Sequence record: EF120459.1
Length of the DNA stretch: 5,055 bases
Strand: one strand, 5' to 3'
From: Enterobacteria phage CL707
Shown here in pieces: positions 4,690-5,046 of this stretch. The translations under genes were made by a program, and so were the position numbers. The notes beneath the pieces are model-generated. The model was not told the DNA's origin and did no database searches. It saw only the letters and a list, made by a program, of their open reading frames with translations. How positions within the stretch are numbered: position 1 is the first letter of the stretch; each line of letters opens with the position of its first letter.

Positions 4690-4750
4690 TCAAATTAAAC
4701 CACACCTATGGTGTATGCATTTATTTGCATACATTCAATCAATTGTTATC
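4690..4750 (+). terminator. tR1: tR1 region (Rho-dependent terminator in lambda), containing inverted repeats at 4702..4714 and 4713..4732
   Basis: The sequence accacacctatggtgtatgcatttatttgcatacattcaatcaattg matches the lambda cro-cII intergenic region as remembered. Termination activity is inferred from lambda, not from the sequence. Confidence 0.6.
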
Positions 4751-4767
4751 TAAGGAAATACTTACAT

Positions 4768-5046
4768 ATGCAACTTACAAGTACTCGCAAGAAAGCGAAT
4801 GCAATTACAAGCAACATCCTGAATCGAATTGCTGTACGTGGCCAGCGAAAGGTTGCCGACGCGTTAGGGATTAATGAATCGCAAATTTCGCGATGGAAAG
4901 ACAGTTTTATCCCAAAGATGGCCATGCTTCTGGCTGTGCTGGAGTGGGGTGTTGAAGACGAGGAATTGGCGGAACTGGCAAAGAAAGTAGCCAAGGTGCT
5001 GACAAAAGAAAAGCCTCAAGACTGCTGCAACAGTTTTGAGGCCTGA
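4768..5046 (+). CDS. cII: CII-like transcriptional activator, diverged from lambda CII
   Basis: Start chosen at the ATG at 4768, which follows the lambda-identical leader ctaaggaaatacttacatATG. The 92-aa product MQLTSTRKKANAITSNILNRIAVRGQRKVADALGINESQISRWKDSFIPKMAMLLAVLEWGV... aligns colinearly with lambda CII and shares the SQISRWK and MLLAVLEWGV motifs. The ORF-track start at 4708 is an in-frame upstream extension into the tR1 region. Confidence 0.85.
   Translation: MQLTSTRKKANAITSNILNRIAVRGQRKVADALGINESQISRWKDSFIPKMAMLLAVLEWGVEDEELAELAKKVAKVLTKEKPQDCCNSFEA

Follow-up and report, generated by a model that had tools for sequence, protein, structure and literature searches.

A probable mosaic boundary at the start of a P22 c1-type cII gene in a lambda-immunity prophage

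The comparisons reported here lead us to conclude that the start of cII in this natural lambda-immunity prophage very probably marks a mosaic boundary, at which a P22 c1-type cII allele adjoins lambda-type DNA as the result of exchange within a conserved stretch of 20-116 bp that ends at the cII ATG. The window (the whole stretch of DNA analysed, 5055 bases long) is the immunity region of a lambdoid prophage. Both the module boundary and the arrangement around it are already known, common and annotated; the prophage is unremarkable among wild lambda-immunity phages and leaves current understanding unchanged. It is a clean example of lambdoid reassortment, with a 20-bp functional linker between the N/nut/immunity set and a cII gene that would carry an internal operator.

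An abrupt change of allele at the cII start codon

The lambda-type immunity segment of the window, at 3635..4770, comprises cI (3635..4348, minus strand), the oR/pR/pRM region, cro (4449..4649, plus strand), nutR, tR1 and the cII ribosome-binding site with its ATG. In blastn it matches lambda at 1118 of 1136 positions, gapless (98.4%). Gene edges bound the module at both ends: it begins at the cI stop codon (3635) and runs to the G of the cII ATG (4770). The cro gene is the lambda allele, being lambda-identical in the alignment and matching the Pfam Cro family at E = 6e-35. With lambda cI, cro and oR operators present, the window would be assigned to the lambda immunity group (imm-lambda).

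The right edge of the segment is sharp. By megablast, lambda 37992..38362 corresponds to window 4400..4770 at 99.7%, the last matching base being the G of the start codon of lambda cII (38360..38653). An ungapped comparison gives 370 identities in 371 positions over 4400..4770 and 121 of 121 over 4650..4770, bearing out an earlier note on this DNA, which had described cro, nutR, tR1 and the cII ribosome-binding site as lambda-like up to the ATG. The same note had seen a different cII allele begin directly after the ATG. Indeed, over codons 2-82 only 133 of 243 positions (55%) agree with lambda in an ungapped alignment, and identity at codon positions 1, 2 and 3 is 62%, 74% and 28%, so that third positions are near saturation. 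In bins of ten bases, identity to lambda falls from 10/10 to 3-7/10 at 4771, which puts the switch within one base of 4770 (Fisher p = 3e-24, 121 bases on each side). We looked in the alignment for gradual divergence and for upstream DNA not of lambda type, either of which would speak against such a junction; neither applies. The description of the site as a textbook module boundary is therefore apt, the switch being abrupt and the flanking alleles assorting independently, as set out below. The sole difference from lambda in 4400..4770 is a G to A change at 4413, position 8 of OR1 (TACCTCTAGCGGTGATA), which also occurs in HK542, STEC1587 and CH4794 and does not occur in HK544.

To the right of the switch lies cII (4768..5046, plus strand), and the window ends 9 nt past it. 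As judged from its sequence, the gene is a member of the P22 c1 / HK620 / Sf6 gp41 allele family. It encodes a protein of 92 amino acids beginning MQLTSTRKK, which matches Pfam Phage_CII (PF05269) at E = 9e-45 (151.2 bits against a cut-off of 21.3), with residues 1-91 on profile positions 1-91, and PHROG 191 (CII-like activator) at E = 8e-37. Its relatives in the PDB are 1xwr, 1zs4 and 8igr; the lambda CII structures 1xwr and 1zs4 match it in phmmer at E = 5e-23. Gapless alignment to lambda CII by BLASTP over residues 7-82, at 55% identity, upholds the colinearity of the two proteins that had been claimed earlier. The motifs SQI[ST]RWK and MLLA[VI]LEWGV are conserved, and six aligned CII proteins show little or no variation in the recognition-helix region SQISRWK. 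The position of the gene is the expected one for cII, between cro/nutR/tR1 (in the window) and replication genes (seen in E. coli CP042945, our locus L014, and in related loci). A search for the donor lineage, which the earlier note had proposed, led to the P22 c1-type family: nucleotide identity to the window cII is 83.5% for P22 c1, about 90% for HK620, Sf6 gene 41, HK446 and HK542, 97.2% for HK140 and 99.3% for several E. coli prophages, including KS-NP019. Alleles of this family are present in 421 of 5426 complete E. coli genomes.

The searches with the window CII also returned lambda cII itself (55% to the query over residues 7-82) from assemblies of unrelated organisms, among them Shewanella, Pseudomonas, Kitasatospora, Bradyrhizobium and Enterococcus. 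These contigs (L195, L197, L199 to L213 and L215 to L221) are often about 48.4-48.5 kb long or tiny, with approximately 1x coverage, and look like contamination with phage lambda control DNA.

A conserved linker and the origin of the boundary

The sharpness of the switch does not by itself locate the crossover, because plausible donors share sequence with lambda upstream of the ATG. The minimal stretch common to all upstream types and to both cII allele families is a 20-mer, TAAGGAAATACTTACATATG, at 4751..4770, which contains the Shine-Dalgarno sequence and ATG of cII and, on the minus strand, the pRE -10. A longer block of 116 bp (4655..4770, plus strand) is common to lambda and the Sf6/HK446 lineage; it includes boxA (4657..4664), boxB (4674..4688, with its hairpin visible in the fold), rutA (4657..4674) and rutB (4690..4709), all placed by transfer from the lambda and HK542 records, together with the tR1 region and the cII ribosome-binding site. 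Over this block Sf6 and HK446 agree with the window at 115 of 116 positions, differing only at 4670 (T/C), and their cro is 434-like and unrelated to that of the window. HK140, HK630 and KS-NP019 have HK620-type nutR/tR1 and are identical to the window only from 4751 onward. The same holds for nine of the ten contigs that encode an identical CII protein, a protein found behind three immunity types.

The ATG is thus, on present alignments, the last point up to which lambda-type and P22-type cII agree. Of the earlier proposal that a recombination junction lies exactly at the ATG, the sharp switch stands and the exact crossover point does not: since plausible donors are lambda-identical for 20-116 bp to the left of the ATG, the crossover cannot be placed more finely, and a homologous crossover anywhere in these 20-116 bp of common sequence would give the observed product. 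There are no informative sites inside 4751..4770. The sole site in 4655..4770, position 4670, was considered as a crossover marker and rejected; it is polymorphic, with C in CH4794, which carries lambda cII.

The flanks of the 20-mer were compared in an IMG/VR scan that yielded at least 120 loci (not de-replicated). All four combinations were found: lambda-type tR1 with lambda cII (at least 53 loci), lambda-type tR1 with P22-type cII (at least 14), HK620-type upstream sequence with lambda cII (at least 16) and HK620-type upstream sequence with P22-type cII (at least 36). This implies that the linker is a recurrent reassortment point.

A second mosaic patch lies inside the gene, at 4905..5046 (plus strand), where the window cII is of the HK140/P22 sub-type, with the protein tail KPQDCCNSFEA, and not of the Sf6/HK542 sub-type (KAPKNGEFFEA). 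Mismatches to HK446 number 0 of 134 in 4771..4904, 10 of 89 in 4905..4993 and 19 of 53 in 4994..5046; those to KS-NP019 in the same three segments number 2, 0 and 0. P22 differs from the window at 4 of 53 positions in 4994..5046 against 26 of 134 in 4771..4904. This split pattern along the gene argues that the window cII is itself mosaic. HK630 and HK620 cII likewise mix sub-types within the gene, and one IMG/VR locus (L073) holds an intragenic hybrid with a P22-type N terminus and the lambda-type tail TERSEQIQMEF.

Antisense to the 3' end of cII, at 5004..5044 on the minus strand, is a predicted oop-like intrinsic terminator, a hairpin followed by a U-run. The hairpin folds at -18.6 kcal/mol (z = -3.1, with 0 of 200 shuffles as good), and the homologous stretch is annotated as the oop terminator in the P22 record; the oop promoter would lie beyond the window end. 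A simple terminator scan missed this hairpin, whose stem has a bulge. P22-type alleles have two variants of the oop hairpin, each with a good stem and U-run (loci L002, L003, L008 and L009 were compared too), and each variant is paired with one CII tail, KPQDCCNSFEA or KAPKNGEFFEA. Because the hairpin variant tracks the CII tail, tail and terminator stem are dual-coded.

These data point to the origin of the boundary. An exchange very probably took place inside the conserved stretch that ends at the cII ATG, which spans at least 4751..4770 and at most 4655..4770; both parental types carry this stretch, and the crossover need not have been at the ATG. By one route, a single exchange in the 20-mer with an HK140/KS-NP019-like phage would suffice. 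By another, a phage like HK542 (lambda immunity with Sf6-type cII) would have undergone a further exchange in cII near 4905. The two routes fit the data alike and cannot be told apart. No observation made here speaks against a mosaic origin. In the loci that we examined, the type of N follows the type of nutR: in the window and in L014, N of the PF11438 (N36) type is paired with lambda-type nutR, and where nutR is of the HK620 type, N belongs to PF25694. Because of this pairing, N and its nut site stay together only if exchange occurs to the right of nutR. To the left of the boundary, N, nutL, cI, cro and nutR may be regarded as a co-adapted lambda set.

Might the joint have arisen in some other way? 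A Hendrix-type model, in which illegitimate (non-homologous) recombination struck this lineage exactly at the ATG and selection for gene integrity kept the product, would account for the last lambda-identical base being the G of the ATG, and the other end of the segment likewise falls at a gene edge, the cI stop codon. We nevertheless consider it improbable. Carriers of this cII allele are lambda-identical for 20-116 bp left of the ATG, a length of common sequence for which ordinary homologous exchange is sufficient, and the existence of all four flank combinations points to the linker having served for exchange more than once. The first adjacency of lambda-type and P22-type sequence may go back to an ancient illegitimate event, but such an event would not be specific to the window. 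A history with no recombination, in which purifying selection held the upstream regulatory DNA constant while cII diverged in place, draws on the fact that the block is dense in functional sites (boxA, boxB, rut, tR1, the Shine-Dalgarno sequence and the pRE -10). It is highly improbable all the same, given that 121 unbroken identities directly adjoin third codon positions at 28%, that in P22 and HK620-type phages the same cII allele follows unrelated nutR/tR1 sequence, and that the four-combination pattern needs exchange.

The possibility that the junction is an assembly chimera or an artefact of the source record is raised by the finding that the whole 5055-base window occurs in no complete E. 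coli genome: the best match covers 82% of it and ends at 4770. This incomplete coverage, however, is due to the IS10 copy and the variable left arm described below, and the joint itself recurs, at 99-100%, in complete genomes and phage isolates that are independent of one another. Lambda cro joined to P22-type cII is present in 29 of the 5426 complete E. coli genomes, about 10 of them with the cII sub-type of the window, and the match of E. coli CP042945 to the window is exact from ATG-140 through cII to 9 nt past its stop codon. The same succession, a lambda cI-cro-nutR segment and then P22-type cII, is found in HK542, HK544 and HK244. An artefact is scarcely credible in the face of such recurrence, and exchange within the conserved stretch is the reading that we carry forward.

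The predicted pRE promoter and two repeats within cII

A switch of allele at the ATG raises the question, put in the earlier note, of whether the lambda-type pRE architecture is retained, since in lambda the CII-binding repeats lie inside cII. On sequence comparison the lambda-type layout is retained. On the minus strand of the window a putative CII box, TTGC GAGTAC TTGT (TTGCGAGTACTTGT; 4777..4790, that is ATG+10..+23), is followed after 13 nt by the -10 hexamer AAGTAT (4758..4763), which has the sequence and register of lambda. The predicted -35 (4781..4786, minus strand) is flanked by the repeats of the CII box, giving a 17-bp spacer between -35 and -10. Lambda has TTGC GTTTGT TTGC (TTGCGTTTGTTTGC), 13 nt and AAGTAT in the same register, and P22 has TTGC GAGTGC TTGT (TTGCGAGTGCTTGT), 13 nt and GAACAT, also in the same register. 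The repeats had been placed in codons 3 to 7 in the earlier note; nucleotides +10..+23 are in fact codons 4-8. We take the pRE start to be lambda 38343, window 4751.

Existing annotation and wider comparison agree with this layout. The CII/C1 binding site of pRE is annotated at exactly this stretch in the P22, Sf6, HK620 and HK542 records, and the HK542 record (EF120458) annotates the pRE -10 at 3675..3680, the window coordinate being the record coordinate plus 1083. The common target of P22 and lambda CII is TTGCN6TTGC/T (PMC2629481). TTGC-N6-TTG[CT] stands in register in 33 of the 46 distinct CII genes drawn from species-representative genomes of Enterobacterales, and a -10-like hexamer at the same spacing is kept across the 46. 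A consensus sigma-70 scan of 4600..5055 found no promoter, which is expected for an activator-dependent promoter and is no proof of CII dependence. The promoter/terminator scan made a single terminator call, at 4715..4701 on the minus strand in the tR1 region, and an Rfam E-value scan of 4300..5055 found no family. The pRE of the window would be chimeric only in having its -10 in the common linker and its -35 and activator site in the cII allele. For annotation, cII can be named a P22 c1-type allele, and 4758..4790 can be assigned to pRE and its CII box.

This arrangement suggests how the two sides of the boundary could work together. The cII allele on the right would bring its own CII box in codons 4-8, and the linker would supply a common Shine-Dalgarno sequence and pRE -10, used by every combination. 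By homology, CII made from pR transcripts would bind at 4777..4790 and activate leftward transcription from pRE; the pRE transcript would run antisense through cro into lambda-type cI and so lead to lysogeny. We infer that P22-type CII and its pRE are compatible with expression of a lambda-type cI.

The pattern TTGCN6TTGY has only two matches in the window, both on the minus strand and both in the first 47 nt of cII. One is the pRE box. The other, a perfect TTGC-TTGTAA-TTGC at 4801..4814 (ATG+34..+47), lies 24 bp further into the gene. This second repeat is kept in 50 of 50 E. coli P22-type alleles and in sequences from Cronobacter, Hafnia, Kalamiella, Erwinia, Pantoea, Enterobacter, Dryocola and Cedecea; P22 (CTGC) and ES18 depart from it by one base, and lambda and the Yersinia and Klebsiella relatives lack it. 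The HK630 record labels it as the CII site, so that as a pattern it had been noticed before. We considered whether the repeat could belong to a separate promoter and rejected this, the hexamer at pRE-like spacing (CGAGTA) not being -10-like.

Codon usage over the repeat points to constraint on the DNA itself. In a sample from E. coli, Kalamiella, Erwinia, Pantoea, Cronobacter, Hafnia, Enterobacter, Dryocola, Cedecea and metagenomes, all genes that encode A-I-x-S-[N/K] at residues 12-16 use GCA and AGC, whose synonymous positions fall within the tetrads, and differ at synonymous positions of the adjoining spacer (ATT/ATC, ACA/ACC/GAA, AAC/AAT/AAG). The metagenome sample taken alone shows variation of this kind in the spacer and never in the tetrads. 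Other invariant Ala, Ser and Ile columns use three or four codons. All these sequences are related by descent. Across eight sequences that are 65-76% identical, but that were chosen for having the motif, the codon is invariant in only 5 of 35 amino-acid-invariant columns; four of these five fall within the boxes, R7 in the first and A12, I13 and S15 in the second. It is conceivable, though we think it doubtful, that besides the canonical CII box a second one, at 4801..4814 (about -50 to -63 relative to pRE), is functional in the P22-type cII clade. Such a box could strengthen or tune pRE activation, and CII bound there, inside its own gene, could hinder rightward transcription from pR. Degenerate in P22 and absent in lambda, it would have been missed by classical work for that reason. 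It is the only item in this analysis that could add to knowledge.

The left arm and comparison with known systems

The left part of the window differs from lambda in several places. An IS10-type element occupies 1..1318 (minus strand), and the start of the window falls within it; RefSeq annotation places it in the ISVsa5 family, and it matches at 99.9% a copy in E. coli CH4794 that interrupts a replication gene of a related prophage. No complete E. coli genome has the element at the same position beside the neighbouring open reading frame of 147 amino acids (1368..1811, minus strand). That frame sits between the IS10-type element and N, where related prophages have an Nmad5-family gene or ral, and its product has no match in Pfam, PHROG, PADLOC or NCBIfam. 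N itself (about 1823..2146, minus strand) has a lambda-type arginine-rich N terminus, but the part encoding its C terminus (1819..1889) is not lambda-like; homology to lambda (87%) starts only at 1890, which argues that N, too, is mosaic. A lambda-type nutL boxB lies at 2319..2333. Directly downstream of cI, in place of lambda rexAB, is a gene on the minus strand (2643..3548) for a BstA homologue of 301 amino acids, an abortive-infection defence protein (PHROG 6287, E = 6e-133; PADLOC BstA, E = 1e-105), which local Pfam and NCBIfam scans did not match. The NCBIfam scan likewise returned nothing for CII.

The closest known relatives of the arrangement are HK542, HK544 and HK244 (GenBank EF120455-EF120458 and JQ086373/4), whose primary description is reportedly that of Degnan and co-workers in 2007 (Mol Microbiol 64:232). 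They share with the window lambda-type cI-cro-nutR-tR1 and P22-type cII from the ATG, at 95-96% identity over 4400..5055, and the HK542 record annotates pRE, its -10 and -35 and the CII box at the same positions as in the window. They differ in the 3' half of cII and in the oop terminator, which in these phages are of the Sf6/HK620 sub-type (tail KAPKNGEFFEA) and in the window of the HK140/P22 sub-type, and in having other genes at the rexAB position.

The window and lambda have the same DNA as far as the ATG, with the pRE -10 included; the CII box stands in the same register and the protein is colinear. From codon 2, however, lambda has another allele, its CII is 97 amino acids long against 92 and has a different C-terminal tail, and the promoter-proximal tetrad of pRE is TTGC in lambda and TTGT in the window. 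In P22 c1/PRE the allele family is the same, TTGC-N6-TTGT stands at the same +10..+23 and an oop terminator overlaps the 3' end of the gene, but P22 has its own nutR/tR1, and its linker has diverged (6 of 20 positions mismatched, with GAACAT as the -10).

Conserved boundary sequences between modules of lambdoid phages are a concept reportedly found in the HK620 and Sf6 genome papers. The 20-mer of the window resembles such sequences (the bsq features of Sf6) in being short, in lying at a gene edge, in being conserved among alleles that are otherwise unrelated, and in being flanked by all allele combinations. The Sf6 record marks bsq5 directly after cII, and the stretch before cII has no bsq label. 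Unlike a mere linker, the 20-mer would also be a functional element, containing as it does the Shine-Dalgarno sequence of cII and the -10 of pRE.
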